Source: Selenomonadaceae bacterium
Lineage (GTDB): Bacteria; Bacillota; Negativicutes; Selenomonadales; Selenomonadaceae
Reading direction: 5' to 3'
NCBI GenBank assembly: GCA_017635875.1
Contig: JAGBKP010000144.1
Coordinates: forward strand, 1 to 49,940
DNA length: 49,940 nucleotides
In this document: positions 810-37,952 of the stretch, in pieces
Position numbering within the stretch: the first letter of the stretch is position 1
Layout: each line of letters begins with the position of its first letter
Made by a program: the position numbers and the translations under genes
The notes under the pieces: generated by a model
The model's database searches: none
What the model was told of the DNA's origin: nothing
What the model saw: only the letters and a program-made list of their open reading frames with translations

Positions 810-889
810 CTACTTTCTTTTTTCTCTTTCTTTTTTATAAAAAAGAAAGAGAAAAAAGAAAGTAGCAAAGAAAAAAGAGAAAGAAAAAA
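810..889 (-). repeat. Tripartite pyrimidine/purine element, copy 1. Perfect 56-nt palindrome at 810-865 plus a mirror purine arm at 867-889. Reads Ym-Y-R on the minus (sense) strand.
   Basis: Arm 811-837 TACTTTCTTTTTTCTCTTTCTTTTTTA is the exact reverse complement of 838-864. Arm 867-889 AAAGAAAAAAGAGAAAGAAAAAA is the exact mirror (reverse, not complement) of purine arm 839-861. Confidence 0.9.
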
Positions 890-904
890 TTTTAATATAT
901 TTTT

Positions 905-15456: not shown

Positions 15457-16063
15457 AGCGATAAACTTCTTTCCAACCGCGATTCTCTACATTGTATATA
15501 TCAATCTCTCCGCCTTGGTCGCCGGTTTTATAATCTCCGCCTTTGGGATTGTTTACGCCTCTCGCCTCAACGGTAAGCCCACCGCCTATGTAAATCGCAA
15601 CATGGCGCATAGGGTCGCATACAATATCGCCGCGCTGTAAATTGTTTTTAATCTCGTCCCAAGTAAATTTTTTAAACCCGCCGAGTCTTTGCATATCCGG
15701 CCAGATAGTATCCGCGTCGCCGCTAAATTGCTTGCCGTTATAGAGTTTCATATAATCGGGATTTTTTTTCCACGCGCCTATCATATCAAATCCCGCGTAT
15801 TGAAGCGCGTGATAGACAAAAGCGGAGCAATCATAGTCCGGACCTTCCCTGCTCCCCGTATACGGATTTTTTGCAGTAGCGTTTTCCGCTCCTTGCGAAT
15901 AGCCGTGCACCGGGTCTCTTGCGATAGCTTCCGCCCACAAGACGTACCTTTCTATTCTGTTTTGAACTTCGTTATTTGTCGCCGCAGATACGGTCTCAAT
16001 GTTGCAAAGGTTTACAGCGACAAATGCCGCTAAACCCAAAGCTAAACCTATGAAATTTTTCAT
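15443..16063 (-). CDS. Secreted NlpC/P60-family cell-wall peptidase
   Basis: 206 aa. Signal peptide, catalytic Cys context YDCSAFVYHAL, and His context RHVAIYIGGG. Confidence 0.8.
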   Translation of the reverse strand: MKNFIGLALGLAAFVAVNLCNIETVSAATNNEVQNRIERYVLWAEAIARDPVHGYSQGAENATAKNPYTGSREGPDYDCSAFVYHALQYAGFDMIGAWKKNPDYMKLYNGKQFSGDADTIWPDMQRLGGFKKFTWDEIKNNLQRGDIVCDPMRHVAIYIGGGLTVEARGVNNPKGGDYKTGDQGGEIDIYNVENRGWKEVYRYVGK

Positions 16064-16119
16064 ACTAAAATTCCTTTCAATATAAAATAGGGGGAAAGAT
16101 ATTCCTTACCCCCGTTTAC

Positions 16120-16584
16120 TTAATTTGTGTCAACCGCTATATCAAGTTCCACTATCTGACCGCCTAAATCCATTTCCACCGTCAGATACTGCGCGTCGCT
16201 GATTTTTATTTGAAAACTTTCTCCTATAGAAAGGCTCGGCGTTGAAATATCAACCTCTAAACCCATACCCGTAATATTTGTGGCTGCGTTTGCGGTTAGC
16301 ATATTGCTAAGTTCAGAGATTGCGCTTTGCGCCATAGCGTCAAAATCCGCTATTGGCATACCCATCATCATAGTCGAGGCTATGGATTTTGCCGTGTCTA
16401 CGGACATATTATATACTACGTTTCCGCGAATTTGTTTGGTAAAGCCGACAACAACCGCGACTCCGCGACTTACCGCGTTTTTTTCGCGCACGTAGAGTTT
16501 GGCGCGTTTGGGTTCTGGGAAACCCATCTGCGGCATAACGGACGTGAATGCGTCCACGAAAGGATTAACCAATTTTGCATCCAT
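16120..16584 (-). CDS. cheX: Chemotaxis CheY-P phosphatase CheX
   Basis: 154 aa. INPFVDAFTSVMPQMG start and overall CheX-like pattern. Adjacent to a REC-CheX gene. Confidence 0.72.
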   Translation of the reverse strand: MDAKLVNPFVDAFTSVMPQMGFPEPKRAKLYVREKNAVSRGVAVVVGFTKQIRGNVVYNMSVDTAKSIASTMMMGMPIADFDAMAQSAISELSNMLTANAATNITGMGLEVDISTPSLSIGESFQIKISDAQYLTVEMDLGGQIVELDIAVDTN

Positions 16585-16588
16585 CCTA

Positions 16589-17461
16589 TCATTCTCCTTC
16601 CGCGAATCCGACGCTTAAATTTATATCGCCGATTTTTGTGGCGGCGGTTATCTTAAACGTGGTAAGTTTTGGACTTGCTATTCTTATGTGATTTCCCGAA
16701 ATAGTGCCGGGCGGCGTAATTCTTAATTCTTTATCCTTAAACACGTCGTTTACGTTCGACGCGCCTCTTCCTATGATGATGTTTACGGCTTCCTCGACGG
16801 AATCCGCCGCTTCTTCGTCGGAGAGTTCCTCGCCCTCTTCGATTCCAAGCATAAGAGACGCGTATTTTTTCATAGTGTCAAAATCCATATGCATTATGGC
16901 GCGTCCCGTGGGATAACCGGTAAGACCGACAATAACGGCGATGCCGTCCACGTCTAAAAATCTGCGCTCGTCCACTTCAAGAGAAACTTCGGCGTGCACT
17001 CCTATCATACTGTAGATGCCTTGTTGAAGCGCTCTTACGAAAGCTTTGGCGTAAGATTCTCTAAGAATCGCAATTTTTCCCACTTCGCTTTGGCAAAGAG
17101 TCATCATAGTTTCTATAAGCTCGTTCGTTGAGATTGGTTTTTGCAAAAAAGAGCTTATGCCGACTTCTCTTCCCGCAGTCATCAGACTTGCGTCTTTCAT
17201 CGCGCTTATCATCACTATTTTAACGGTTGGGTCTATAAGATGTATGCGACGGCTGCATTCGATTCCGTCCGCATCGGGAAGGTTCATATCCATTGTAATT
17301 ATTTGAGGACGCATTTCGCTAAACATTTCAACTGCCTCTGCGACGGTTTTTGCTTCGGCGCACACTTCGAAATTTGTTTTGGCGAGATGTCCTTTTATCA
17401 TAGCGCGACTGACCTTGGAGTCGTCCACTATCATAACTTTGACTTTCTCCATAAATTTCAC
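16589..17461 (-). CDS. Response-regulator receiver domain fused to a CheX/CheC-like phosphatase domain
   Basis: 290 aa. REC domain (VMIVDDS...MDMNLPDADG...K) followed by a CheX-like C-terminal half (IAVIVGLTGYPTGRAIMHMD...EAVNIIIGR). Confidence 0.78.
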   Translation of the reverse strand: MKFMEKVKVMIVDDSKVSRAMIKGHLAKTNFEVCAEAKTVAEAVEMFSEMRPQIITMDMNLPDADGIECSRRIHLIDPTVKIVMISAMKDASLMTAGREVGISSFLQKPISTNELIETMMTLCQSEVGKIAILRESYAKAFVRALQQGIYSMIGVHAEVSLEVDERRFLDVDGIAVIVGLTGYPTGRAIMHMDFDTMKKYASLMLGIEEGEELSDEEAADSVEEAVNIIIGRGASNVNDVFKDKELRITPPGTISGNHIRIASPKLTTFKITAATKIGDINLSVGFAEGE

Positions 17462-17562
17462 CTGCCCAAAATTATCGTCAATATTTTACTCTTCTATTTT
17501 CTACCAAAAATAAAAAATCCCTGCTAATTTTTTTCAAGGTAAATTTTTTATTTTCCTTAACC

Positions 17563-17591
17563 TTGCGAAAACGATAATTTTCATATAAAAT
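17563..17591 (+). promoter_or_regulatory. Putative sigma-70-type promoter of the PLD-NTPase gene
   Basis: TTGCGA, 17-nt spacer, TAAAAT. About 40 nt upstream of the ATG at 17631, which is preceded by GGAGG. Confidence 0.4.
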
Positions 17592-17630
17592 GAGAACATA
17601 TTTCGTCTCGTTGTTTTTGGAGGAAAATCA

Positions 17631-19715
17631 ATGAAAGAGCTTTTTGCGGAGCCTTCTCTTTTTGTTTTGCATAACGGCGCATCTTGCGAATTTACGACTG
17701 ATGAAATATTTGACGCTTCTCGTTTTACAAAATTTTACGGCGTAAGTTATGTGTCAAGTCCTAAATTTTTCGCTGAAACCGTTCGCGATTTTAAAGAAGT
17801 TACGTTTATTTTGGGAATCCCCGATACCGATGTTTCTGGGAAATTCACCGACGCTTTAATAAACATTTTGGCCGAATCAGAAAACGGCGCGCTGTTTTTT
17901 AATTCGCTTTCAGGCGCGGCAAAAAATAAAATTGTCGATGGTTGTATGAATATCAGGTACGGCAGAGCCGGCGTTATGATTCACGACAAAATATATCTCT
18001 TGGCAAACGATGATACGAACGATTACAGGGTAATTATGGGCTCTGCGAATTTTTCCGCATCAGCTTTTAATGCAGAAAACAAAAATTACGAAAATATTCG
18101 GATAGACGATAATAAAGATCTGTATGATATATACAAAAAGCGTTGGGATTATCTTTATTCCGAAACGGAAGATTTTATACCGGAAATTTGCAAAAAGCAA
18201 TATAAGGACACAAAGACACAGATAGTGTTGGACGCGGAAACAAAATTTAATCTTTTGGTGGATAGGTTGGACGAAAATCGCGCAAATCTTATCGTGCCGG
18301 AAAATTATTTACAGGACATTCATAAAGAAACTCTATACATAAAGAAAAAACTTGAAAACGTCGAACAGACAAAGAAACTTTTGGGAGCGGTTCTTTCCGG
18401 CAAACGCAAAGACAATACGTATCGCGTTAAACTAAAGGAAAGCATAATAAAATCAAAACAGGGCATTAAAAATTATTTGGTAAAGACAAACAAGGACAGC
18501 GAAGATTTAAACGCATCACGCGAACTGTTGCTCTCTTCGGACGAAGAATACCTCTATAAAAAAATTAAAAACGAAGACGAGAGCGAAAACGGCGAATTAA
18601 CGTTATACTCCAAACTTGCGACGACAGACGAAATAAAATCCGCGCTTACCAAAATAGACGCTTTTACAAAGGCTTATTACGATTTTGCGATTGTCCCGAA
18701 CGAAGAAATACCGGGTAAAATTTACGAATCCATACTTTACGCATTCACTGCGCCTTTTATTTGGAGACTGAAGCAGGAATACGCGCTTCAGTACGACAGA
18801 GCGTCTGTAGGAGATATTCCTATGTTTTTGGTTATAGGCGGCGTAAGGGAGTCGGGGAAATCTACGCTTTTAAATTTTCTTGCGGGGCTTTTGGGGGAAT
18901 CCGGCGCAGATATTTACGATTACGCAAGAAGTCTGGATAAAGCCGGAAATCTTATGGATATGCTTGAAAGTTCAAATCTTTTGCCGATTATGACGGATGA
19001 AATTTCAAACAGCTTTTTCGGAAAATCTTCAAGCCCAAGAAAAGGAGAAAATTTAGTGAAACTTTTGTCCAATACAGTGCCTGAACATTCTATGGGCACG
19101 CTTATAGGTACGACGAATTACGCCGATTTTTCGTCTGCGGGGCAAGTGATAAGACGAATTTATTATCTTGAAGTAAACAATATGTTCGATTCCAAGAAGA
19201 AAAAGGAGTCGATGAATATTTTAAGAGATTTAAACGATGGTATAAGCGACGCGCTGTTTCGCGATTTTTCCTATCGTTTCGCGACTGAACTCAGAAACAG
19301 GGGCGAGGTCTTTCAAATCGACGATTTTCTTATACTTACGCGGCGTATTTTTAAAGACTACTACAAAGAATGTTCGATGACACCGCCAAAGTATTTCCCC
19401 GAGAAAAGATTTTTGGATTATGAAACCCGAAAAAAACTTGTTTGGAAACAGCTTTATTTTTCCACCGACAAGGAATATTTCAAAGACAACGGCGATATTT
19501 TGCAGGTGAACATCGACGCGCTTTTAAAGAACACCACGGGAAGCGCGCAGAAAAAGAAAAATCAACTCTTTGACTATATGGATGAAACTTGCTGGGCAAC
19601 GGACGCGGGTATAGGAATGTATTGGTTTTTGAAAAAGAAAGAATTTTTCAGATTTATCGAATACGAGCCTTCGTTTATACGCAAAACTCTTGATTTCCTT
19701 AAAATAAAATGGTAG
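17631..19715 (+). CDS. Fusion protein: N-terminal single-HKD PLD-family nuclease domain plus C-terminal SF3-helicase-like P-loop NTPase (candidate defence or mobile-element protein)
   Basis: 694 aa. HKD motif MIHDKIYLLANDD...IMGSANFSASAF (H118, K120, G137-S-x-N140). Walker A GGVRESGKST (403-412), Walker B LLPIMTDE (D456 E457), SF3 motif C LIGTTN (N496), and candidate arginine finger RR (508-509). Confidence 0.6.
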   Translation: MKELFAEPSLFVLHNGASCEFTTDEIFDASRFTKFYGVSYVSSPKFFAETVRDFKEVTFILGIPDTDVSGKFTDALINILAESENGALFFNSLSGAAKNKIVDGCMNIRYGRAGVMIHDKIYLLANDDTNDYRVIMGSANFSASAFNAENKNYENIRIDDNKDLYDIYKKRWDYLYSETEDFIPEICKKQYKDTKTQIVLDAETKFNLLVDRLDENRANLIVPENYLQDIHKETLYIKKKLENVEQTKKLLGAVLSGKRKDNTYRVKLKESIIKSKQGIKNYLVKTNKDSEDLNASRELLLSSDEEYLYKKIKNEDESENGELTLYSKLATTDEIKSALTKIDAFTKAYYDFAIVPNEEIPGKIYESILYAFTAPFIWRLKQEYALQYDRASVGDIPMFLVIGGVRESGKSTLLNFLAGLLGESGADIYDYARSLDKAGNLMDMLESSNLLPIMTDEISNSFFGKSSSPRKGENLVKLLSNTVPEHSMGTLIGTTNYADFSSAGQVIRRIYYLEVNNMFDSKKKKESMNILRDLNDGISDALFRDFSYRFATELRNRGEVFQIDDFLILTRRIFKDYYKECSMTPPKYFPEKRFLDYETRKKLVWKQLYFSTDKEYFKDNGDILQVNIDALLKNTTGSAQKKKNQLFDYMDETCWATDAGIGMYWFLKKKEFFRFIEYEPSFIRKTLDFLKIKW

Positions 19716-19745
19716 ATTTCAATAATTTAAGAAAGACGTGATATT

Positions 19746-20768
19746 TTGGAAAAAGATGTTTCAAAACAGGCGGGGTATTTTATCAAATACGGCTTGATTG
19801 TTTTTGTGGGAATTACTCTTATAATTTCATACGCGATATTTTCATATATGGATAAATCCGAAACTTTAACCATACGCGACGCAAAAATCGCGGGTACTTT
19901 CGTCAGTATAAAAGCGCAAGCGAACGGAAAACTTACGGAAATTCGAGTTAAAGACGGAGAAAACGTATCTGCGGGCGACGTACTAGCGACCGTTGAGGTT
20001 GCCGTTACCGAAGACACCATAAAACAGTTGGAGCAAAACGTTGCGCTTGCAAAAGAAAATTTAGAGCAACTTAAAAAGGGACAGGATATAAAGGTGCCCG
20101 TATCAACAGGCGTTGATTTAAGCGCGGCGAATGCGGATTTAGCGAGAGCCGAATCGCGTAAAAATCGTATGGAAGAACTCTTTAAAATGGGCGCGATAAG
20201 CAAGGTGCAAAGAAACGAAGCCGTAGCGGATTACGAGGCGGCAAAAGCGAGAGCGACGGCGAGCGCGCCGACATCTTACCAAACCCTGCATAAAGATACC
20301 GCGCCGGAAATTTTAGAAAGCGCGGCTCTTAATGTGCGTCAAGCGGAAGCCGCTTTAAAACGGGCAAAAGAAGACGCGTCCGCGACTGAAATAACTTCTC
20401 CCATAGACGGCGCGTTTTATTTGGCGAGCGTTGAAGAAGGAAGCGAAATTCACGCAGGCGAGCGGCTTTTTAACATAGGCGACGCTACGAATATGTGGAT
20501 AGAAGCGAGATTAAATTCGGAAACGCTCTCAAAAATCCGTCTCGGAGAACTTGTGACTTACGAGATAAACGGCAAAAAATTATCCGGCACGGTGACCGAA
20601 ATCGAAGAAGAAATAGCGTCAGACGAAAATGCTCCGCTTGCTACGGAGGGGGGCGCGCCAAAAGTGGAGGGGTCAGACGGCAAACGCGCCGTTAAGATTT
20701 CACTCGCGGACGAGGCTCTTGAAAATCTAAAACCCGGCGCGACCGTTTCCGTTACTTTTCGTTCGTGA
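19746..20768 (+). CDS. HlyD/EmrA-family membrane-fusion (periplasmic adaptor) protein with no adjacent transporter
   Basis: 340 aa. N-terminal TM segment, lipoyl-like hairpin (GKLTEIRVKDGENVSAGDVLATVE), a long coiled coil, and a beta-barrel segment (ITSPIDGAFY...GERLFNIGD). TTG start. Confidence 0.75.
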   Translation: MEKDVSKQAGYFIKYGLIVFVGITLIISYAIFSYMDKSETLTIRDAKIAGTFVSIKAQANGKLTEIRVKDGENVSAGDVLATVEVAVTEDTIKQLEQNVALAKENLEQLKKGQDIKVPVSTGVDLSAANADLARAESRKNRMEELFKMGAISKVQRNEAVADYEAAKARATASAPTSYQTLHKDTAPEILESAALNVRQAEAALKRAKEDASATEITSPIDGAFYLASVEEGSEIHAGERLFNIGDATNMWIEARLNSETLSKIRLGELVTYEINGKKLSGTVTEIEEEIASDENAPLATEGGAPKVEGSDGKRAVKISLADEALENLKPGATVSVTFRS

Positions 20769-20861
20769 AATATGAATAAAAACCTCGTATTTTTTCTTCT
20801 AAAATCTATATATACTCAAAATTTTTAAATAATTTTTATTGCAGAATAAAGGTGTTTATCA

Positions 20862-21863
20862 TTGAATTACATAGGTTCAAAATATTCTTTGCTTGATTTT
20901 TTGACGGAAACAATATCTAGCGTAACTGGGTATAAGAGTGGAGATTCATATATTTTTGCAGATTTGTTTGCGGGAACCGGCATTGTCGGACAAACTTTTA
21001 AAAGTATGGGGTGTAAAGTTATTGCAAATGATATTCAATATTACAGTTATACATTAAATAAGCATTTTATTGAGAATGTACCGAAAATGGACAACAGTTT
21101 AACCGATTATTTAAATTCCCTTACCCCAATACAAGGATTTGTATATAATAATTATTGCGCCGGAGGAGATAAAGGCAGAAATTATTTCATTGATGATAAC
21201 GGTATGCTTTGCGACGCTATAAGGAATGAACTTGAAAAATTAAGATTTAACAAAGATATTGACGAAGGAACTTATTTTTATTATCTTGCCAGTTTAATCA
21301 ATTCGATTGACAAATACGCAAATACTGCTTCTGTTTATGGAGCATATTTAAAGCATGTAAAAAAATCTGCGGCAAAACCTTTTAAATTGGAACTGCTTCC
21401 CGTTATAGACGGCGAAAAAGGCAAGGTCTACAACGAAGATATCAATAAACTGATAAAAACCGTTGAGGGAGATGTTTTATATTTAGACCCCCCGTATAAT
21501 TCAAGACAGTATTCGTCAAATTATCATGTTTTGGAAACGATTTCAAGATACGATAATCCAATATTAATCGGTAAAACCGGACTTAGAGATTCAACATCGC
21601 AGAAGAGTAAATACTGTTCCAAAAGAACAGTTGTAGATATGTTTGAAGATTTGATAAAACGCGCTAAATTTAAATATATTTTCCTTTCTTACAATAATGA
21701 GGGTTTAATGGACTTGAACACCATAAAAAACATAATGTCAAAATACGGCAAATATATTATTTTTACCAAAGATTATAAAAGATTTAAGGCGGATAGCGAG
21801 AAAAACCGAAATATTAAAGCAAATTCAACTACCGAATATTTGCATGCTCTGATAAAGGAGTAA
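20862..21863 (+). CDS. N6-adenine DNA methyltransferase, Dam/D12-class (alpha motif order)
   Basis: 333 aa. N-terminal NYIGSK box, AdoMet motif FADLFAGTG (32-40), and catalytic DPPY (209-212). TTG start after AAAGGTG. Confidence 0.85.
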   Translation: MNYIGSKYSLLDFLTETISSVTGYKSGDSYIFADLFAGTGIVGQTFKSMGCKVIANDIQYYSYTLNKHFIENVPKMDNSLTDYLNSLTPIQGFVYNNYCAGGDKGRNYFIDDNGMLCDAIRNELEKLRFNKDIDEGTYFYYLASLINSIDKYANTASVYGAYLKHVKKSAAKPFKLELLPVIDGEKGKVYNEDINKLIKTVEGDVLYLDPPYNSRQYSSNYHVLETISRYDNPILIGKTGLRDSTSQKSKYCSKRTVVDMFEDLIKRAKFKYIFLSYNNEGLMDLNTIKNIMSKYGKYIIFTKDYKRFKADSEKNRNIKANSTTEYLHALIKE

Positions 21864-21865
21864 TT

Positions 21866-22654
21866 ATGGCAAGGTATAATGATTTAGATCCTAAAAAGTG
21901 GAAAGAATATGCGGACATCATAACGGATTCTCTTTGGCTGATAGATAAAAGAGATAATTCCGGAGCGCATAGCGGGGACTATCACGGAAATTTTGTGCCA
22001 CAAATACCGCATCAACTTTTTACAAGATATACAAAAAAAGGCGATTGGATTTTAGATCCATTTGCGGGCAGCGGCACTACCTTAATAGAGGCTCAACGCA
22101 TGGAACGAAATTCCATAGGCATAGAATTATTGCCGAAAGTGGCAAAGAAGGCGCATGAAGCGATTCAAACGGAACATAAGCGAAATATAGTTTCCAAAAT
22201 AATTACAGGCGACAGTAGAAATATTGATTTAAGCGAGTTATTGTCAATTTTTCAAATTAAGAAAGTACAATTTATTATTATGCATCCCCCATATTGGGAC
22301 ATAATTAAATTTTCTGACAATAAAAACGATTTATCAAATACTTTAACTCTTGGCGATTTTTTAGACGCTTTTGGAGAGGTAATTGAGAATACTTCAAAAT
22401 ATTTGGAAAGATACAGATATTTGGCCTGCGTTATTGGCGATAAATACATGAACGGACAAGTAGTGCCTTTAGGCTTCCATTGTATGAATAAGTTTTTGGA
22501 AAAAGGTTTTTTACTAAAGGCTATATTGGTAAAAAACTTCGGAGAAACAAGAGGCAAAGCGGGAAATCAAGGAATATGGCGATATAGAGCCATTGCCAAC
22601 GATTTTTATATCTTTAAACATGAATATATTTTTGTGTTTAAGAAACTGAAGTAA
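21866..22654 (+). CDS. Second DNA methyltransferase of the R-M cassette (amino-MTase; motif I precedes motif IV; catalytic tetrapeptide HPPY)
   Basis: 262 aa. ILDPFAGSGTTLIEA (63-77), GDSRNI, and IIMHPPYWD (137-145). Starts 2 nt after the first methyltransferase gene. Confidence 0.72.
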   Translation: MARYNDLDPKKWKEYADIITDSLWLIDKRDNSGAHSGDYHGNFVPQIPHQLFTRYTKKGDWILDPFAGSGTTLIEAQRMERNSIGIELLPKVAKKAHEAIQTEHKRNIVSKIITGDSRNIDLSELLSIFQIKKVQFIIMHPPYWDIIKFSDNKNDLSNTLTLGDFLDAFGEVIENTSKYLERYRYLACVIGDKYMNGQVVPLGFHCMNKFLEKGFLLKAILVKNFGETRGKAGNQGIWRYRAIANDFYIFKHEYIFVFKKLK

Positions 22655-22658
22655 AATA

Positions 22659-23258
22659 TTATTTGTCTTCTTTCAAATGTCTTTTAAATTCCAGCGGATC
22701 ATACCAATAACAACCTATACAGGCATTTTCTTCGTTGTTGTGATGGGCTTCGCCCGCATAATAACTCATAGGATAACCCAGTTTTTTTGCGTCGTATCTA
22801 ATTTTATTTTTTTTACACTCTTTACAAAATTGTCTTTTAGCATCGTTTGCGGCTTTTGATAAAGGTTGAAAATCCGAAAGTTTTTGATCTTCGTTTTTCA
22901 TTACTCGGCTTTCGTTTTTCATACCGTTTTTATGATCTACTTCCGGATTGGAGGTGCCTAAAACTACACAACGCTGACTTTTTATGACTTTTTTAATGTC
23001 GCTCCTAATATGTTGAGAAAATTCATCATTATTAAAACCGTTTAATCGTATTCTGTCTATACTGTTGCCGGCAGTTATGGATTTATCAAATTCGATAATG
23101 TATTTTTTAGCGAGAGCAGACTCTTTTCTTGCCCAAGACGCACCGTTTCCAAATGTTAGATGCTTGTATTCTCCAACGAATTCAGATATGCTTACCCAGC
23201 GACTTACACCATCTTTATTGGGATTTGCTAATTTTAAAAACAACTCCGTTTTAGTCAT
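22659..23258 (-). CDS. Small HNH (beta-beta-alpha-Me) restriction endonuclease with a Cys4 zinc ribbon
   Basis: 199 aa. EVDHKNGMKNE...FQPLSKAANDAKR (H109, N138), plus CKEC (145-148) and CIGC (180-183). Convergent with the methyltransferases (4-nt gap) and immediately downstream of the C gene. Confidence 0.62.
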   Translation of the reverse strand: MTKTELFLKLANPNKDGVSRWVSISEFVGEYKHLTFGNGASWARKESALAKKYIIEFDKSITAGNSIDRIRLNGFNNDEFSQHIRSDIKKVIKSQRCVVLGTSNPEVDHKNGMKNESRVMKNEDQKLSDFQPLSKAANDAKRQFCKECKKNKIRYDAKKLGYPMSYYAGEAHHNNEENACIGCYWYDPLEFKRHLKEDK

Positions 23259-23259
23259 T

Positions 23260-23469
23260 TCAATCCTCCATAAGTAGCTTATATGCGTCTATATTTAAAG
23301 CCCCCGCAATTTTTTGAATATTGTTGATAGAAACATTCCTTTCTCCTCGTTCGATATCGCTGATGTATGTTCTGTGCAAATCGCATAGTTCAGCGAATTT
23401 TTCTTGCGATATTTCTAAATTTTTGCGATGTTTACGAACATTTTTGCCAAAAATATGCGCCAATTCCAT
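23260..23469 (-). CDS. R-M controller (C) protein, XRE-family HTH
   Basis: 69 aa. LEISQEKFAELCDLHRTYISDIERGERNVSINNIQKIAGAL closely matches the C-protein HTH pattern. Its stop lies 1 nt before the endonuclease ATG. Confidence 0.78.
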   Translation of the reverse strand: MELAHIFGKNVRKHRKNLEISQEKFAELCDLHRTYISDIERGERNVSINNIQKIAGALNIDAYKLLMED

Positions 23470-26081: not shown

Positions 26082-26312
26082 ATGTCAATAACGATAGATT
26101 TAAGCCCAGAAGACACCGCTTTTGTCGAAGAACAAGCGAAAACCGAAAATTTAACGGCGGAAGCGTTTTCTAAAGCCGCCGTGATGAAAGCGGCAAGAAA
26201 CGCCGCTTATATGGAAAGCATAAGGCGGGCGAAGAAAAATCTTGACGAGGGTAAAGGCGTTTGGGTAACAGACGAAGAATTAAGGAGAATAGTTTATGGG
26301 AACGCTGTTTGA
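26082..26312 (+). CDS. Type II antitoxin partnered with YoeB
   Basis: 76 aa, overlapping the yoeB-like gene by 17 nt. Small acidic protein. Family (YefM versus RHH) not resolved. Confidence 0.6.
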   Translation: MSITIDLSPEDTAFVEEQAKTENLTAEAFSKAAVMKAARNAAYMESIRRAKKNLDEGKGVWVTDEELRRIVYGNAV

Positions 26313-26556
26313 CGATAAAGCGTTTGAACAGTTGATGTATTGGGTTCGCGAAGACCGTAAAATTGCCGCAAAAATACATTCGCTTATAAACGATATACAC
26401 CGTAACGGAATATCGGAAGGAATAGGAAAACCCGAACATTTAAAGAGAGACGATGGGTGGAGTCGCCGTATAGACCACGAAAATCGTTTGGTTTATGATA
26501 CAGATAAAGACGGTAATGTCAGAATAATCTCTTGCAAAGGGCATTATGAAGATTAA
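26296..26556 (+). CDS. yoeB: YoeB/Txe-family mRNA interferase toxin
   Basis: 86 aa. YW..ED.K...KI..LI.DI...G....GKPE.LK....GWSRRI...NRLVY....HY matches the YoeB pattern. Confidence 0.85.
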   Translation: MGTLFDDKAFEQLMYWVREDRKIAAKIHSLINDIHRNGISEGIGKPEHLKRDDGWSRRIDHENRLVYDTDKDGNVRIISCKGHYED

Positions 26557-26589: not shown

Positions 26590-28389
26590 ATGACGGAAAT
26601 TGTAAAGGAAAAGTTATCGCTATTGTCAGACTCCCCAGGCATCTATATTATGAAAGACGAACACGGAAAAATAATTTACGTGGGCAAGGCGCGCGTATTA
26701 AAAAATCGCGTGCGTCAATATTTTCAACACACAGCTAATCATACGCCGAAAGTCCGCGCGATGGTGGCTAAAATCGCGGATTTTGAAACAATACTCACCC
26801 ATACGGAAGTGGAAGCCCTTATTTTAGAGTGCAATCTTATAAAAAAACATCGCCCGCGCTACAATATCAGCCTAAAGGACGATAAGAGCTATCCTTACGT
26901 AAAAGTGACGCTTCGGGACGATTATCCGAGACTTATAATCACGCGGCGCATTTTAAAGGACGGCGCGAGATACTTTGGACCTTATACGGACGCGGGCGCG
27001 CTTCACAGCAGCGTAAGACTTTTAAGAAAACTCTTTCCTATTCGTTCTTGTAAAAATATGGGGGAGCGACCTTGTTTAGAGCATCACATCAAGAGATGCC
27101 TCGCCCCTTGCGCGGGAAAAGTGGACAAAAGCGAATATTTTTCGATGATAAATTCCGTTTGTCTGTTTTTGGAAGGACGCACGGCGGAAGTTGAAAAAAC
27201 TCTGCAAAAAAATATGGAGGATGCCGCCGAAAATTTTGAATTTGAAAAGGCGGCGAGACTTCGCGACCAGCTTGCGGCGGTTAAAAAGACGGCGGAAAAG
27301 CAAAACATAGTGACGGGCGCGGGCGACCAAGATGTTATAGGCATAGCGCGGTCAAATTCTTTTGCTTGCGTTGAAATTTTAATCGTGCGCGAAGGGAAGA
27401 TGATAGGCAGGGAACATTTTATCTTGAAAGGCAGCGAGGACGAAGCGGACGCGGATATTTTGTACGCGTTTTTATCTCAATACTATAACCACGCGGCTTT
27501 TTTGCCCAAAGAAGTTTTACTGCCGTTTATGATAAACGACGCGAGCGTGTTGGAAAAATTTTTGGAAGAAAAAAAAGGGACCCGCGTATATTTGCTCTCG
27601 CCGATTAGAGGAACGAAAAAAGATTTAATAGATATGGCGGCGGGAAACGCCCAAAAATATCTGGACGACGAAGAAAAGCGCCTTGAAAAGGATAACGCTC
27701 AAACAATCGGCGCGGTTTTGGAACTGCAAAAATATTTGATGCTTAAAAATCCGCCGCATAGAATGGAATGTTTCGATATTTCGCATATACAAGGCTCCGA
27801 AACGGTTGCGTCAATGGTGGTCTTTGAGGACGGCGCGCCGAAAAAGAGCGATTACAGAAGATTTAAAATAAAAAGCGCGGAAGGAAAACCAGACGATTTT
27901 AAGTCCATGAGAGAGGTCACGACACGCCGTTACGGAAAATTGAAAGAGGAAGAACTCCCCGACCTTATCGTAATAGACGGCGGCAAGGGGCAACTTTCAT
28001 CCGCCCTTGAAATAATTCGCGGCGCAGGGCATAAAACAGTGCCCGTGGTGGGGCTTGCAAAGCAATTTGAACTTATATTTGTGGAAGGACAAAGCGAACC
28101 TGTGGAACTTCCGAGAAACTCGGAATCTCTCTATCTTATGCAGCGGATACGCGACGAAGCGCATAGATTTGCAATAACTTACCATAGAAAACTTCGGAAT
28201 AAAAGAAATTTAGTTTCGGTTTTAGACCATATCGAAGGAATAGGAAGCGTGCGGCGAAACGCGCTTTTGGCGCATTTCGGCTCAGTGCAAAAGATAAAAG
28301 AAGCGGGTATCGAGGAAATTGCGAAAGTAAACGGTATGAATGAATCAGCCGCGCTTGCCGTCGCAAATTTCTTCGCGGCGCACAGATGA
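26590..28389 (+). CDS. uvrC: Excinuclease ABC subunit C
   Basis: GIY-YIG start (PGIYIMKDEHGKIIYVGKA), UVR domain (FEKAARLRDQL), and C-terminal RNase H-like plus HhH2 regions. ATG at 26590 preferred over the TTG at 26578. Confidence 0.95.
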   Translation: MTEIVKEKLSLLSDSPGIYIMKDEHGKIIYVGKARVLKNRVRQYFQHTANHTPKVRAMVAKIADFETILTHTEVEALILECNLIKKHRPRYNISLKDDKSYPYVKVTLRDDYPRLIITRRILKDGARYFGPYTDAGALHSSVRLLRKLFPIRSCKNMGERPCLEHHIKRCLAPCAGKVDKSEYFSMINSVCLFLEGRTAEVEKTLQKNMEDAAENFEFEKAARLRDQLAAVKKTAEKQNIVTGAGDQDVIGIARSNSFACVEILIVREGKMIGREHFILKGSEDEADADILYAFLSQYYNHAAFLPKEVLLPFMINDASVLEKFLEEKKGTRVYLLSPIRGTKKDLIDMAAGNAQKYLDDEEKRLEKDNAQTIGAVLELQKYLMLKNPPHRMECFDISHIQGSETVASMVVFEDGAPKKSDYRRFKIKSAEGKPDDFKSMREVTTRRYGKLKEEELPDLIVIDGGKGQLSSALEIIRGAGHKTVPVVGLAKQFELIFVEGQSEPVELPRNSESLYLMQRIRDEAHRFAITYHRKLRNKRNLVSVLDHIEGIGSVRRNALLAHFGSVQKIKEAGIEEIAKVNGMNESAALAVANFFAAHR

Positions 28390-28533
28390 AAATTCGCTTG
28401 ACGCTGATTTTGAAATAATTTAAAATATAGCTTGTGTTAATAATTTATAAAAATAATAAAGTTTTTTCAGGCTGTAAATAAAACTAAAAATTAAAAGCAA
28501 TAACAAAAAATTAATCAATAGAGTTTAGTAAAG

Positions 28534-28616
28534 TTTTCTTTCTCTCTTTTCTTCTTTGTTACTTTCTTCTTTTCTCTCTTTCTTTTTCAAAAGAAAGAGA
28601 GAAAAGAAGAAAGTAA
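28534..28616 (+). repeat. Tripartite pyrimidine/purine element, copy 2 (Ym 28534-28557, hairpin 28559-28616)
   Basis: Y arm 28559-28586 is the exact reverse complement of R arm 28589-28616 (2-nt loop). Ym TTTTCTTTCTCTCTTTTCTTCTTT is the exact mirror of the Y tract. Confidence 0.9.
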
Positions 28617-28647
28617 ATAAACAAACTAAAAAATACGAGGAGAAATC

Positions 28648-29277
28648 GTGAGGATAACGAAAAAGATAAAAGAAGAACAGATGAAAATTTTGGAAGAAAC
28701 GTATTTTGGGGCAAAACCGGCGTTAAAGTTTTCATCCGATTTTGAACTTTTGGTTGCGGTAATTTTATCCGCGCAGTGTACGGATATAAGAGTAAATGTT
28801 GTAACGGAAAGGCTTTTTAAAAAGGCTAATACGCCGGAAAAAATTTTAGAAATGGGAATAGAAGAACTCGAAAAAGAAATACACGATTGCGGATTTTTTA
28901 GAGCGAAAGCGAAACATATTTTTGAAACGTCAAATATTTTATTGCAAAAATTTAACGGAAAAGTGCCGTCCGATTTTGAAGAACTAACAAAACTTCCGGG
29001 CGTAGGGAGAAAAACCGCAAATGTAATCATGAGCGTCGCCTTTAATAAACCCGCGATAGCGGTGGACACTCATGTCTTTAGAGTGTCGAACAGATTGGGA
29101 CTAGCTAAAGGAGAAACACCGCTTGCGGTTGAAGAAGGATTACAAAAGGCGATACCCAAAGAAAAATGGGGAAATTTTCATCACTATTTAATATGGCACG
29201 GAAGAAAAATTTGCAAAGCAAAAAATCCGCTATGCGACGAGTGTATGTTGAAAGAAGTATGCGAATATAAAAATTGA
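28648..29277 (+). CDS. nth: Endonuclease III (DNA-(apurinic or apyrimidinic site) lyase)
   Basis: 209 aa. HhH-GPD motif LPGVGRKTANV, catalytic K/D context, and C-terminal 4Fe-4S cluster CKAKNPLCDECMLKEVC. GTG start after GAGGAG. Confidence 0.93.
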   Translation: MRITKKIKEEQMKILEETYFGAKPALKFSSDFELLVAVILSAQCTDIRVNVVTERLFKKANTPEKILEMGIEELEKEIHDCGFFRAKAKHIFETSNILLQKFNGKVPSDFEELTKLPGVGRKTANVIMSVAFNKPAIAVDTHVFRVSNRLGLAKGETPLAVEEGLQKAIPKEKWGNFHHYLIWHGRKICKAKNPLCDECMLKEVCEYKN

Positions 29278-29297
29278 ATTTAAAAAATAAAAAGTGT

Positions 29298-29332
29298 AAA
29301 AAACAATATAGAAAAAACAATATAGAAAAAAC
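29298..29332 (+). repeat. Tandem 14-nt repeat (AAAAAACAATATAG, 2.5 copies) in the flank of element copy 3
   Basis: Direct reading: AAAAAACAATATAG AAAAAACAATATAG AAAAAAC. Confidence 0.85.
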
Positions 29333-29354
29333 TAATCAACAGAGTCTATTAAAA

Positions 29355-29431
29355 TTTTTTCTCTCTCTTTTTCTTTGCTACTTTCTTTTTCTCTCTCTTT
29401 TTTATAAAAAAGAGAGAGAAAAAGAAAGTAG
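29355..29431 (+). repeat. Tripartite pyrimidine/purine element, copy 3 (Ym 29355-29376, perfect 54-nt palindrome 29378-29431)
   Basis: Ym TTTTTTCTCTCTCTTTTTCTTT, Y CTTTCTTTTTCTCTCTCTTTTTT (29381-29403), R AAAAAAGAGAGAGAAAAAGAAAG (29406-29428). Y/R are exact reverse complements and Ym/Y are exact mirrors. Confidence 0.92.
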
Positions 29432-29454
29432 ATAAAAAACATAGAGGTGAAAAA

Positions 29455-29946
29455 ATGATAGAATACAGAAAACCTAAATTTTCGGATGTTGAAGGCGTTT
29501 ACGAGCTTGTAATGGATTACGCGAACGAGGGGCAGATGCTTGCGCGGTCTAGGAACGTTTTGTACGAAACTTTAAGAGAAATGATAATCGCGGTTGAAGA
29601 CGGAAAAGTCATAGGCGTAGGCGCGCTTCATATTCTTTGGGCGGAACTTGCGGAAGTGAGATCTGTCGCCGTAGCTAGGGAAAAGAGACGGCTTGGAATA
29701 GGGAAAGAAATAGTTGAAAAGCTGATGGAAGAAGGTCGCGCTTTCGGCGTAAAAAAATTCTTTACCCTTACGTATCAGCCGAAATTCTTTTCTTCGCTGG
29801 ATTTTACGATAATCACAAAAAACGAACTTCCGCATAAGGTGTGGAAAGAGTGTATAGATTGCCCAAAATTTCCCGATTGCGACGAAATTCCGATGCTCCA
29901 CGATGAGTCAAAAGGCGATAAAAATACGGAGATTTTGTGGGAATAG
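29455..29946 (+). CDS. GNAT-family N-acetyltransferase (ArgA-like amino-acid N-acetyltransferase type)
   Basis: 163 aa. Acetyl-CoA motif RSVAVAREKRRLGIGKEIVEKL. Confidence 0.78.
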   Translation: MIEYRKPKFSDVEGVYELVMDYANEGQMLARSRNVLYETLREMIIAVEDGKVIGVGALHILWAELAEVRSVAVAREKRRLGIGKEIVEKLMEEGRAFGVKKFFTLTYQPKFFSSLDFTIITKNELPHKVWKECIDCPKFPDCDEIPMLHDESKGDKNTEILWE

Positions 29947-33900: not shown

Positions 33901-34194
33901 TTAAGCCGCTCTTCTCGGCTGAGAATCTTTACCGCTACGATTCTGCGGTTTCTTGTTATTTGTTTCTTTCTCCGTTTTCATTTTAGCTTCGGCAACTTTA
34001 ACTCTAGCCATAATTTCTATCTCGGGAGGAATGTATTTGTGATGACGAAACCTAGAAAGTTCTTCTTTTGTAAGCGGAGGATTTTCGACATCATATTCGT
34101 CGATATGGTTTTTCAGCCTCTCATTCTCTGACGCTATACGCTCCGGCGTCATTTCCTCCATAATTTCTTCCATTGTTTTAACAACTATTGCCAT
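33901..34194 (-). CDS. brnA: BrnA-like antitoxin (partner of the DUF497 toxin)
   Basis: 97 aa, immediately downstream of and overlapping the BrnT-like gene (the usual toxin-first order of BrnTA). Family assignment is by context. The start may be the ATG at 34173. Confidence 0.5.
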   Translation of the reverse strand: MAIVVKTMEEIMEEMTPERIASENERLKNHIDEYDVENPPLTKEELSRFRHHKYIPPEIEIMARVKVAEAKMKTEKETNNKKPQNRSGKDSQPRRAA

Positions 34195-34453
34195 AGTATG
34201 CGCTCCTTTCTTCTTGGGTTGCCTTTCTTGCCGATATAATTCTTACTGTGTCTTTTTCACGATATGTAACTATCACGCATAAAACTTGGTCAACCATTCC
34301 GATTATCCTATATCTGTCTTCATCAAAACTGTGTATTTCGTCGTAATCTTCAATGTAGTTTGGGTCTTTAAAGATATATGCCGCTCTCTCAAATGAAATG
34401 CCGTGTTTTTGAATGTTAATCTTGTTCTTATTTTCATCCCATACAAATTTCAT
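34178..34453 (-). CDS. brnT: BrnT (DUF497) ribonuclease toxin
   Basis: MKFVWDENKNKINIQKHGISFERAAYIFKDP...RYRIIGM....L.VV.T.R....RIISARKA matches the DUF497 pattern. ATG at 34453 (after GAAGGTG) preferred over 34498. Confidence 0.8.
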   Translation of the reverse strand: MKFVWDENKNKINIQKHGISFERAAYIFKDPNYIEDYDEIHSFDEDRYRIIGMVDQVLCVIVTYREKDTVRIISARKATQEERSAYYGNSC

Positions 34454-36255: not shown

Positions 36256-36681
36256 ATGATGAAAAAAGCAACGCTTATTGTGGGAATTTTGATGTGTACG
36301 CTTCTTACGGGCTGCGGGCAGGTGAAAGTCGGATATATAAACGGCGAACGCATAACAAAAGAGGCTCCGCAGATAAAGGCGACAATGGATGAAGGCTCCA
36401 AGAAAATGCAAGAGGTGCAACAGGACCTCGTGAAGAAAATGGAAGAAAATCCCAATATGAGCCAAGAAGAATCCGAAAAACTTCAAACCGAAGCCCAAAG
36501 AAAGGCGATGGGCTACAGTCAGCAATATATTACCCAAGTACAACAAAAATTAAACGTCGCCCTTGAAGAAATCTCCAAAGAAAAGAAAATTGACGTTGTA
36601 CTGGACAACAGCGCTTACCAAAAATCCGTCTTCATGGGCGGCGAGGATTTAACCGACGAGGCTATTAAAAAATTACAGTAA
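36256..36681 (+). CDS. Skp/OmpH-family lipoprotein, paralog 3
   Basis: 141 aa. Lipobox LLTGC, VKVGYINGERI start, and C-terminal IDVVLDNSAY...DLTDEAIKKL. Confidence 0.7.
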   Translation: MMKKATLIVGILMCTLLTGCGQVKVGYINGERITKEAPQIKATMDEGSKKMQEVQQDLVKKMEENPNMSQEESEKLQTEAQRKAMGYSQQYITQVQQKLNVALEEISKEKKIDVVLDNSAYQKSVFMGGEDLTDEAIKKLQ

Positions 36682-36686
36682 AAACC

Positions 36687-36766
36687 TTACTTTCTTTTTC
36701 TCTTTTCTTTTTTGAAAAAAAGAAAAGAGAAAAAGAAAGTAACAAAGAAAAAGAGAAAAGAAAAAA
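36687..36766 (-). repeat. Tripartite pyrimidine/purine element, copy 4 (hairpin 36687-36742, mirror purine arm 36744-36766). Reads Ym-Y-R on the minus strand.
   Basis: Y arm TTACTTTCTTTTTCTCTTTTCTTTTTT pairs with R arm AAAAAAGAAAAGAGAAAAAGAAAGTAA. Arm AAAGAAAAAGAGAAAAGAAAAAA is the exact mirror of R. Starts 6 nt after the skp3 stop. Confidence 0.9.
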
Positions 36767-36821
36767 CTTTAATATAATTAAATTATGTACTTGAACATAT
36801 TTTTTGTCTTTTATATTAAAG

Positions 36822-36895
36822 TTCTTTTTCTTTCTTTCTTTTGGTAATTTTCTTTCTTTCTTTTTCTTTCAAGAAAAAGAAAGAAAGAAAAGTAC
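36822..36895 (+). repeat. Tripartite pyrimidine/purine element, copy 5 (Ym 36822-36842, Y 36848-36868, R 36871-36891)
   Basis: Ym TTCTTTTTCTTTCTTTCTTTT is the exact mirror of Y TTTTCTTTCTTTCTTTTTCTT. R AAGAAAAAGAAAGAAAGAAAA is the exact reverse complement of Y (2-nt loop). Confidence 0.9.
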
Positions 36896-36929: not shown

Positions 36930-37952
36930 ATGAGAAAGACATTGACCGAAATAGCGGCTTTTGTTGGCGGCGAAGTTGTCGGCGATGGCAATTTAGAAAT
37001 AGTTGGGCTTGAGTCTATTGAAGGCGCGGGGGAAAACGATTTAATTTTTGCCGTAGAGCCTCATATCGAAGAAGCGAAAGACAGCAAAGCCGCCGCCGTT
37101 ATGCTTGGTCGTCACATCGGCGAATTTCCGAAACCCACTATTAGGGTAGACGACCCAAGAGCCTCTTTTGCCAAACTTCTCGATATGTTTGCGCCGCGTC
37201 TTAATGTGCCCACCGAAATTAGCGACAAGGCGTATATAGGAAAAAATGTAACTATCGGAAAAGACGTTACGATTTATCCGCTTGCTATGATAGACGATAA
37301 CGCTATCATAGGCGATAGAGTCGTAATCTATCCGCATGCGTACATCGGACAGTATACAGAAATCGAATCGGACAGCGTGATATATCCGTCGGTCGTTATT
37401 CGCGAATATACGCATATAGGAAAGCGTTGCGTAATTCATAACGGCGCGTCGATAGGCGCGGACGGTTTCGGTTTTACCACCGCCGAAGGCGTGCATACGA
37501 AAGTGCCGCAGATTGGAAACATTATAATAGAAGACGACGTCGAAATCGGCGCAAACGTGGGCATAGACCGCGCAGCTATGGGGTCTACCGTTATAGGAAA
37601 AGGCACGAAGATAGATAATCTCGTGCATATCGGACACAACTGCAAAATCGGCGCAAATTGCTTAATAGTGGCGCAAACGGGAATTTCAGGTTCAACCGTC
37701 GTCGGCGACAACGTAACTTTCGGCGGACAGACGGGAACTGTCGGGCATATTAAAATCGGCGGAAATTCCACTTTTGCGGCGCGCTCGGGCATAACGAACG
37801 ACACGCCGGAAAATTATTTCGCGGCTGGTTTCCCCGCCCAGCCTCACGCGTCTTGGCTCCGCTTGAAAGCGTCGCTAAATCACGTGCCGGAGATGCGAAA
37901 AGAGTTGAAACGGCTTGCAAAAGTTGTTGAAGAACTTATAAAGGGCAAATGA
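36930..37952 (+). CDS. lpxD: UDP-3-O-acylglucosamine N-acyltransferase
   Basis: LbH hexapeptide repeats, the GADGFGF catalytic region, and IGHNCKIG. The ORF track starts at GTG 36921; the ATG at 36930 is equally possible. Confidence 0.9.

Follow-up and report, generated by a model that had tools for sequence, protein, structure and literature searches.

Three-armed intergenic repeats of rumen Selenomonadaceae whose covarying arms fit an intramolecular pyrimidine-motif triplex

Five copies of a three-armed intergenic element

The window, which designates here the whole stretch of DNA analysed (49,940 nt; contig JAGBKP010000144.1 of a Selenomonadaceae bacterium), carries five copies, c1 to c5, of an intergenic element made of three homopyrimidine or homopurine arms on the same strand. 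Position numbers without another label refer to this window. A first pyrimidine arm (Ym) precedes a hairpin formed by a second pyrimidine arm (Y) and a purine arm (R), and Ym is the mirror of Y. Copy c3, located upstream of a GNAT acetyltransferase gene, is composed as follows.

29346-29431, forward strand: element c3 as a whole (left motif, Ym, G linker and extended hairpin), ending 23 nt before the ATG of the GNAT acetyltransferase gene (29455-29946)
29346-29354, forward strand: left motif CTATTAAAA (family consensus TT[A/G]TTAAAG, in which TAAA is invariant)
29355-29376, forward strand: Ym, the third (Hoogsteen) arm TTTTTTCTCTCTCTTTTTCTTT, parallel complement of R
29377-29380, forward strand: linker made of a single G, then CTA, a 3-nt extension of the stem whose pairing partner is TAG (29429-29431)
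29381-29403, forward strand: Y, the Watson-Crick pyrimidine arm CTTTCTTTTTCTCTCTCTTTTTT
29404-29405, forward strand: hairpin loop AT, between T6 and A6
29406-29431, forward strand: R, the purine arm AAAAAAGAGAGAGAAAAAGAAAG (29406-29428), with the stem extension TAG

A sequence-only reading of this DNA had placed Ym at 29355-29376, Y at 29381-29403 and R at 29406-29428, and the arms have exactly these limits. As it had claimed, the reverse complement of Y is R without any difference, and the mirror of Y is Ym at 22 of 22 positions. The four further copies that it had listed are real as well, with three equally perfect arms, at 813-889 and 36690-36766 on the reverse strand and at 28534-28613 and 36822-36892 on the forward strand. 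The whole elements, together with a remnant, lie at the following positions.

810-898, reverse strand: element c1, 23 triads, sense, 37 nt before the ATG of hslV (233-772, reverse strand) and also 15 nt past the stop codon of a DUF3089 gene
28525-28616, forward strand: element c2, arms of 24 triads, sense, 31 nt before the GTG of nth (28648-29277)
36687-36775, reverse strand: element c4, 23 triads, antisense to its neighbours, with its R end 5 nt past the stop codon of an OmpH-family gene (36256-36681, forward strand)
36813-36895, forward strand: element c5, 21 triads, sense, with GGTAA as a variant of the junction, lying about 34 nt upstream of the lpxD start (36930-37952)
28452-28473, forward strand: solo left-end remnant AATAATAAAG TTTTTTC followed by unrelated sequence, inside the insert associated with c2

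The five copies have five different arm sequences and, within each copy, all three arms agree. Together, they account for nearly all the long purine or pyrimidine tracts of the window. Elements c4 and c5 form a back-to-back pair, the Ym side of c5 facing c4 over a 55-nt spacer. The remnant at 28452-28473 looks like a truncated element reduced to the left motif and the start of the third arm.

Anatomy and collection of the family

Alignments were built from 59 and then from 157 family members, the latter being copies with unique flanks gathered from two rumen Selenomonadaceae genome assemblies and from rumen metagenomes. The order of the parts is a 9-nt left motif, Ym, a single G, a 3-nt extension, Y, a 2-nt loop, R, the partner of the extension, and [A/G]GAAC. 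In the family logo, the left motif TT[A/G]TTAAAG, directly 5' of Ym, carries 1-2 bits per position, and no conservation is found outside the limits of the element. Ym starts with T6-7, continues with a variable T/C middle and ends with CTTT, and the single G is the only linker between it and the stem. The Watson-Crick stem reaches 3-4 bp past the triplex part (YTAC...GTAR); the 3-nt extension occurs as TTA, CTA, CTT, GTT or TTT, and it covaries with its partner. The loop (AC, TC or AT) stands between T6 and A6, and the [A/G]GAAC that follows the extension of R is weakly conserved. The number of triplets per copy ranges from 12 to 29 with a mode of 23, and most arms are 19-29 nt long. About 60-87 distinct arm sequences are present among the 157 copies, with an average composition of 79% T and 21% C and without any common consensus.

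In a subfamily with arms of 28-29 triplets (L092-L096, L099, L101, L114-L116 and others), Y has a conserved bulge of one base at a distance of 9-10 nt from the loop. The bulged base is a G (an A in L122), is found at many unrelated loci, and seems to be either tolerated or functional.

Terminal inverted repeats were not found: for 133 of 136 elements, shuffled controls reach the same best inverted match as the two flanks do. Being no better than these controls, the flanks lead to the rejection of a MITE (miniature inverted-repeat transposable element). In the metagenome-assembled genome (MAG) RGIG9261, a c2-type arm sequence is included in a larger repeat of at least ~145 nt (L007 1-150, L013 3790-3931 and, as reverse complement, L036 ~1060-1215). 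This larger repeat has 12-nt inverted ends (TATAGTAAACGA ... TCGTTCACTATA) adjoining TA, and is MITE-like, unlike the other family members.

Searches with Rfam 15, which includes the ENE, MALAT1 and riboswitch triple helices, gave nothing in the window that reached the gathering threshold. In E-value mode, the matches were limited to generic models of long hairpins (miRNA precursors), on both strands and far below threshold. A known RNA family is rejected on these grounds.

Covariation of the third arm with the purine arm

The design put forward by the sequence-only reading supposes a third arm that is seldom missing or out of register. Indeed, of 176 Y-R hairpins recovered with a hairpin-first detector that allows gaps, 165 possess the mirror arm, and the remaining 11 are detector errors, copies cut by contig ends or a few deletion derivatives. 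Over the 157 copies, both the Watson-Crick and the Hoogsteen register are satisfied in 3,481 of 3,530 triplet columns (98.6%). When 138 family members are compared, Ym is mismatched with its own R at 1.1% of positions and with the R arms of other members at 22.7%. One feature of the collection speaks against taking this agreement at face value, namely that the patterns used to gather part of the copies included the last bases of the third arm. However, because the 29 copies matching neither search pattern and found by the hairpin-first search alone are equally consistent (98.4% in register), the collection method does not explain the agreement of the arms.

Covariation was assessed on 22 distinct members of 93 nt aligned without gaps, Ym being reversed in silico so that its parallel register with R can be written as nested brackets. 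The two kinds of pairing gave the following values.

Paired or consistent cells: 99.5% for Watson-Crick, 98.8% for Hoogsteen
Pairs changed on both sides: 9 for Watson-Crick, 7 for Hoogsteen
Covariation score, observed versus shuffled: 0.286 versus 0.130 for Watson-Crick, 0.246 versus 0.129 for Hoogsteen
Shuffles reaching the observed score: 0 of 500 for Watson-Crick, 0 of 500 for Hoogsteen
Paired after a slide of 1-3 columns: 69-76% for Watson-Crick, 71-82% for Hoogsteen

Thus, covariation with the purine arm is as tight for the third arm as it is for the Watson-Crick arm. By simple arithmetic, a 22-nt mirror match in a fixed register has a chance of about 1e-4 per copy at 79% T and 21% C. Chance is rejected as the source of the match because of this figure, of the gap in mismatches between own and other R arms, and of the 500 shuffles, none of which reached the observed score. 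The variable arm sequences rule out a site for a sequence-specific protein, and we know of no copying process that produces mirror repeats. Since, in addition, the third arm tracks R, selection for Hoogsteen pairing is the only reading found that would explain the agreement of the three arms.

Motif chemistry and folding strand

Adjacent C residues occur in the third arm of 5 of the 157 copies, whereas about 95 copies would be expected to have them. Neighbouring protonated cytosines (C+) destabilize a pyrimidine-motif triplex, and the avoidance of CC fits this rule. The rare CC/GG step is found in all three arms of an element at L130 1246-1325 and in copies of L131, L136 and L156; in L130, the Y/R pair at the CC/GG column is now A-T and Ym still has C. 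Hoogsteen-only defects are concentrated in G-C columns (17 of 23 among the 157 copies). The G content, around 21%, is poor for a purine-motif triplex. Among the stem mismatches, which come from about 12 independent loci, 13 are T·G and 2 are C·A, T·G being a wobble on the Ym-Y-R strand. The ratio of T·G to C·A is 10 to 1 in copies sense to the downstream gene and 2 to 1 in antisense copies, where the numbers are too small to judge.

The low G content, the avoidance of CC, the location of the defects in G-C columns and the asymmetry of the wobbles together indicate that the strand that folds is Ym-Y-R, the symmetric cruciform not being the form that is selected. The sequence-only reading had regarded the complementary strand as equally suited to the purine motif; this does not hold, as the pyrimidine motif is favoured by the scarcity of G, by the rarity of adjacent C residues and by the 13:2 wobbles. 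Its main proposal of a Ym-Y-R foldback of the pyrimidine motif is, in contrast, backed by the three-way covariation, the 98.6% of consistent columns, the avoidance of CC, and the coordinated or stepwise changes of the arms, although it remains a proposal read from DNA sequence. RNA forms pyrimidine-motif triplexes and not purine-motif ones (PMC4666352). The hairpin has a minimum free energy of -46 kcal/mol as RNA (z = -7.7) and of -32.6 kcal/mol as DNA (z = -8.1).

The family is very probably one of REP-like, high-copy intergenic repeats of about 90 nt in which selection maintains the capacity of the T/C-rich strand to fold into an intramolecular pyrimidine-motif triplex. With the same high confidence, this fold would consist of 20-29 triplets, T·A-T (U·A-U in RNA) with isolated C+·G-C, Ym lying in the major groove of the Y-R hairpin.

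Placement relative to genes

The R end always adjoins a gene end. In 89 copies (64%), it stands a median of 34 nt before the start codon of a gene of the same sense (interquartile range (IQR) 28-41) and, in 50 copies (36%), a median of 7 nt past an opposite-sense stop codon (IQR 3-16). On the Ym side, a spacer of variable length is found, with a median of 120-162 nt. Intergenic regions between genes of the same direction house 62 copies in sense and 37 in antisense orientation, whereas 11 copies lie between divergent genes and 5 between convergent ones. At least six back-to-back pairs are present, with their Ym sides facing each other over spacers of 54-67 nt.

Some operon junctions are filled wholly by an element, in either orientation. 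The elements filling them must therefore be co-transcribed and, as both orientations are represented, the elements are not strong terminators and a one-way block of transcription is unlikely. An intrinsic terminator is also rejected: downstream of the stem, one strand reads [A/G]GAAC and the other an A-rich arm, and neither has a U-tract. A terminator scan of 28300-29600 reported nothing at c2 or c3. Canonical terminators are present in 5 of 49 intergenic regions with an element versus 15 of 75 without, a difference that is not significant.

Read as the -10 box of a sigma-70 promoter, the left motif (TAAA[G/A]T) keeps T1, A2 and T6 of the consensus, has an atypical G at position 5, and is accompanied by TGn in 27% of copies. 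A canonical promoter nevertheless seems unlikely, since there is no -35 peak at any offset and a promoter scan gave the native nth promoter alone (TTGACG-17-TAAAAT at 28398-28426). Element c4 opposes c2, c3 and c5 on the same side of a GC-skew switch of the window; this orientation and the back-to-back pairs contradict an orientation set by the direction of replication.

Evolution and strain variation

Between two MAG species with flanks 80-91% identical, orthologous elements are found with different arm sequences, all three arms being perfect in each. In one orthologous pair, a 1-nt indel in a T run is shared by the three arms. Elsewhere, orthologues, two antisense copies among them, show 100% identity from one species to the other despite diverged flanks. 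The strain pair L125/L140 displays a T·G·T column in L125 where L140 has C·G·T; as read from these sequences, this marks a halfway stage in the change of T·A-T into C+·G-C by way of a G·T/U wobble.

The c3 element of strain contig L003 differs from that of the window in its left motif, its loop and features of all three arms. Because all parts of the element differ while the flanks are ~99% identical, this change is interpreted as the replacement of the whole element or a gene conversion. Strain contig L005 lacks c2 and ~125 nt upstream of it, a segment of ~201 nt (window 28427-28629 versus L005 2880-2900). The segment starts where the TAAAAT of the native nth promoter, its -10 box, stops, and has AAAATA at both ends; the difference looks like an insertion with a 6-bp duplication or a deletion via microhomology.

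The Ym-side spacers are hypervariable between strains. Upstream of c3, the spacer of the window contains a tandem duplication (29298-29325, two copies of AAAAAACAATATAG); L003 has this unit only once, and L005 has a 22-nt sequence in place of the entire spacer. Metagenome assemblies break inside the elements. Contigs L167 and L168 start inside the R arm of c1, and in L172 (725-959) an unrelated upstream sequence is joined to c1 exactly at the hairpin apex, together with an internal deletion of R. This junction reflects a genuine hotspot of rearrangement or else a chimera created at the repeat during assembly.

Distribution

A pattern scan of 185,579 species genomes gave at least 78 loci, of which ~45 of those listed are true elements and the remainder chance matches. 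The true elements among the genome matches listed all come from two Selenomonadaceae MAGs, RGIG9261 and RGIG6591. With a family-wide pattern, 72 loci in total were obtained over the whole metagenome collection. A phage origin is rejected, the scan of viral contigs having given six chance matches, none with the triplex architecture.

Proteins of the window are also encoded on NCBI assembly GCA_017940025.1 and on European Nucleotide Archive (ENA) contigs labelled XIEF21, a label that we take to designate the survey of ruminant guts by Xie et al. 2021. A thermophilic source among the Aquificota, suggested by a Pfam family with the name Aq_aa27, was rejected in view of these contigs and of the occurrence of the repeats in rumen Selenomonadaceae assemblies. 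No match of at least 200 nt was found between the window and the MAG loci. For this reason, the window organism is taken to be different from, but related to, those carrying the MAG loci, and L084 was dropped as an orthologue of c4/c5, BLAST giving it no window match of at least 200 nt. Among the matches listed, the family looks confined to a narrow lineage of rumen Selenomonadaceae (Negativicutes), which is a lower bound on its range.

Relation to known repeats and triple helices

The sequence-only reading knew of no bacterial repeat family combining an inverted and a mirror repeat. This is wrong: the potential intrastrand triplex (PIT) elements (BoxC/TMECO) described by Hoyne/Maher 2000 and Holder et al. 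2015, and the entries of the ITxF database, are of this kind (PMC4666352). These elements and the present family are alike in being bacterial intergenic repeats with three homopurine or homopyrimidine blocks on the same strand, an inverted repeat plus a mirror arm, and a double foldback. Both are multi-copy, with a copy number varying between close relatives and local rearrangements nearby. The block order and polarity of the present family are those of an intrastrand triplex, of class IV on the sense strand and of class II on its complement, and class IV is rare, representing 4% of ITxF hits (PMC4666352). TMECO, found in Proteobacteria, belongs to the purine-motif class II and has loops of 3-6 nt; its arms are rich in G/C, measure 9 nt and follow a fixed consensus (CCCTCNCCC...GGGNGAGGG...GGGNGAGGG). 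The arms of the present family, on the other hand, are A/T-rich, measure 20-29 nt and covary over dozens of sequences, and the family corresponds to the pyrimidine-motif class IV on its favoured strand. Its loop has 2 nt and its linker 1 nt, a conserved motif stands on the 5' side, and the placement at start or stop codons is strict. With arms of 79% T and 21% C without a common consensus, it falls outside the BoxC/TMECO sequence family. Its arms, mostly 19-29 nt, also lie outside the size range searched for ITxF (stem 6-15 nt, loop 1-6 nt). As related in PMC4666352, the orientation of BoxC in E. coli has no significant link to the associated genes according to Hoyne/Maher.

With REP, BIME and REPIN sequences, the family shares the state of high-copy extragenic hairpins occurring in both orientations, near stop codons and within operons, without terminal inverted repeats or target duplications, and with inverted doublets separated by short spacers. 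REPs, however, are imperfect palindromes, rich in G/C and 20-40 nt long, with a GTAG conserved on the 5' side, a link to RAYT (Y1) transposases and no mirror arm, whereas the stems of the present family are A/T-rich and perfect and its conserved motif is TT[A/G]TTAAAG. Contrary to REPINs, the partners of its doublets differ in arm sequence, and no RAYT was identified, no systematic search having been aimed at one.

The homopurine·homopyrimidine mirror repeat is the classical sequence requirement for the formation of H-DNA under negative supercoiling. Such H-palindromes resemble the unit made of Ym, the 4-5-nt spacer and Y, a perfect pyrimidine mirror repeat of ~50 bp; read from the sequence, Ym, G plus 3 nt and Y form a perfect mirror in 5 of 5 window copies. 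Yet H-DNA needs no purine arm on the same strand, and this arm is kept in the present family as strictly as the mirror arm.

In the RNA world, the triple helices of ENE/MALAT1, SAM-II, preQ1-II and telomerase RNA similarly rely on a major-groove U·A-U stack interrupted by C+·G-C, with an A-rich strand between U-rich strands. The ENE/MALAT1 class protects the RNA end from exonucleases. These helices contain ~11 or fewer consecutive triples, have internal-loop or pseudoknot topologies and serve in 3'-end protection or ligand binding. The predicted fold of the present element differs by its foldback of a 5' tail on a hairpin, its 20-29 triples and its location on the 5' side of cistrons. Natural RNA triple helices covered in a 2026 review are of the riboswitch and pseudoknot types, ENE and MALAT1, all of them short (PMC13541005). 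A full-text literature search returned no paper on triplex elements in Selenomonas or in the rumen.

Proposed role and alternative explanations

A role can be proposed starting from the observed architecture, covariation, strand asymmetry, placement and replacement events. It is plausible, with a confidence somewhat below even, that the fold works as RNA, in leaders and between cistrons, and an effect on stability or translation is put forward with the same reserve. Since the sense copies lie ~34 nt upstream of start codons and often fill the junctions, they would be transcribed into leader or intercistronic RNA. An RNA triple helix would form there a very stable, nuclease-resistant block that would keep decay of the RNase J, Y or III type away from the duplex of 27 bp and from the next cistron on its 5' side. 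The invariant AAAG before Ym may be a processing site or part of a -10 box (TAAA[G/A]T, including the first T of Ym). Docking would also hold Ym, otherwise a pyrimidine arm pairing with the Shine-Dalgarno sequence, out of the way; when leaders are folded with no term for the triplex, Ym pairs with at least 75% of the Shine-Dalgarno sequence in 51 of 68. The copies are spread or renewed by copying of the whole element or by gene conversion, and are also compensated stepwise in place. The fullest form of the proposal is tentative. It holds that transcribed elements form an RNA triplex of 20-29 U·A-U and C+·G-C triples that would cap 5' ends or intercistronic regions against ribonucleases and might also serve as a Shine-Dalgarno switch sensing pH or Mg, antisense copies being accommodated by their own -10-like motif or by a single-stranded DNA (ssDNA) fold.

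Several points weigh against this RNA role. The main difficulty lies in the antisense copies, 36% of the total and antisense to both neighbours, which keep their third arm as well as sense copies do, with Hoogsteen defects of 0.82% versus 1.05%. In the mRNA of their neighbours, they would form a hairpin only, so that a role as RNA needs antisense transcripts or transcripts from their own promoter, and no -35 enrichment accompanies the left motif at any offset. The all-A/T apex (T6-NN-A6) with its 2-nt loop resembles the centre of a DNA cruciform more closely than a functional RNA hairpin. C+·G-C triplets require protonation near neutral pH. Finally, the complementarity between Ym and the Shine-Dalgarno sequence is generic, a mirrored Ym giving -8.0 versus -8.1 kcal/mol, and a co-adapted anti-Shine-Dalgarno pairing is rejected for this reason.

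The main alternative, although it is held only tentatively, places the action of the fold in single-stranded or non-B DNA, on the lagging-strand template, on the displaced non-template strand of an R-loop, or in a supercoil-driven cruciform capturing Ym. By analogy with what has been proposed for BoxC/TMECO, which was linked to genome instability, such a fold would affect replication, the relaxation of supercoils or recombination at gene boundaries. It would accommodate an apparently orientation-independent function, as antisense copies keep three arms conserved between species. The hairpin centre of 14 bp of pure A/T and the conserved mirror centre both favour DNA structural transitions, and the DNA hairpin is itself stable, as given above. 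The flanks are unstable (the ~201-nt difference at c2, the spacer and duplication at c3, the deletion derivatives and the apex breakpoint of L172), and the known analogue has been studied as DNA and tied to rearrangements (PMC4666352). However, H-DNA requires the mirror pair only and a cruciform the inverted pair only, so that three arms on the same strand point to a free single strand. The orientation is not tied to one direction of replication, as c4 and the back-to-back pairs illustrate. Moreover, a symmetric cruciform gives no 13:2 asymmetry of wobbles, and the 28-41-nt spacing to start codons has no obvious reason at the DNA level.

The elements might also be selfish mobile repeats of the REP/REPIN type or derived from IS200/IS605, their fold and 5' motif being recognized by an enzyme such as an HUH/Y1 transposase without any host function, but this is unlikely. 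A high copy number with the same arm sequence at unrelated loci, the absence of terminal inverted repeats in the comparison of flanks with shuffles, a conserved motif on one side only, and the occurrence of both orientations would suit such repeats, and the doublets, inverted and spaced by 54-67 nt, are reminiscent of REPINs. A single polymorphism of presence versus absence in which AAAATA is duplicated, the replacement of whole elements between strains, and the inclusion of a c2-type copy of one MAG in the repeat of at least ~145 nt with 12-nt inverted ends go in the same direction. Nevertheless, orthologues that are 100% conserved although their flanks differ by 10-15%, and arms compensated stepwise, point to selection on each copy. 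The tight placement coupled to orientation (~34 nt to the start codon, ~7 nt to the stop codon) is likewise foreign to a purely selfish repeat, no transposase was identified, although no systematic search was made for one, and the patterns have no true match in viral contigs.

A conditional translational switch is improbable as the main role. In this special case of the RNA proposal, the docked third strand would free the Shine-Dalgarno sequence, and melting of the triplex would let Ym pair with it and turn translation off. A higher pH (through the loss of C+), low Mg or a higher temperature would be the triggers, making the element a pH- or ion-sensing leader suited to changes in rumen acidity. 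The 51 of 68 sense leaders in which the Shine-Dalgarno sequence pairs with Ym, the c3 minimum-free-energy fold, in which this helix encloses the hairpin, and the constant spacing between R and the start codon are in line with it. So are the isolated C residues, ~21% of the third arm, which by triplex chemistry would make stability dependent on pH. On the other side, the pairing is generic between pyrimidines and purines and not co-adapted, and antisense copies are left unexplained.

Last, ordinary hairpins (terminators or REP-like 3' stabilizers), with a mirror arm arising as a by-product of T/C-rich microsatellite-like sequence, are very hard to reconcile with the data, since the location 0-16 nt past a stop codon in 36% of copies, the few canonical terminators beside elements and the short CTTT or CT runs of some arms are opposed by the lack of a U-tract after the hairpin on either strand, by the operon junctions wholly filled in both orientations and by a terminator count that does not differ significantly. 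This explanation is already contradicted by the tracking of its own R by Ym (1.1% versus 22.7% mismatch), the arms not being self-symmetric, and by the Hoogsteen covariation (0 of 500 shuffles, 71-82% in slid registers).

Other features of the window

The GC skew changes sign in the region ~16000-20000, where the genes also switch from the reverse to the forward strand, near 17.5 kb; no dnaA was seen there. This switch may mark the origin or the terminus of replication, or else the edge of an inversion. Further features are the following.

17631-23469: restriction-modification cluster with a PLD/NgoFVII-like nuclease-domain protein (17631-19715), a Dam-like MethyltransfD12 gene (20862-21863), an N6_N4 methyltransferase (21866-22654), an IceA-type nuclease (22659-23258, reverse strand) and an HTH regulator
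26082-26556: toxin-antitoxin pair, YoeB toxin (26296-26556) with a small open reading frame (ORF) upstream
33901-34453: toxin-antitoxin pair, BrnT toxin (34178-34453, reverse strand) with an adjoining small ORF

Implications

The formation and importance of triplexes in living bacteria is a long-standing open question. As the sequence of BoxC/TMECO is fixed, comparative data cannot show there whether the third strand is used, whereas the arms of the present family covary over dozens of variants. They thus provide unusually strong evolutionary evidence for the use of a nucleic-acid triplex in a living bacterium. To our knowledge, evolutionary proof of this type is normally available for Watson-Crick helices only, and it concerns here Hoogsteen pairing. 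Existing triplex finders, which stop at 15-nt stems, miss such long-armed families. If the RNA proposal is true, the triplex would be 2-3 times longer than any natural RNA triple helix of the 2026 review (PMC13541005), and it would be the first RNA triple helix occurring as a dispersed, covarying repeat family in bacterial mRNA leaders. With ~80 nt, many variants and defined positions, the elements constitute a natural test system for the roles that triplexes may have in RNA stability, translation, genome stability and, possibly, the sensing of rumen pH.

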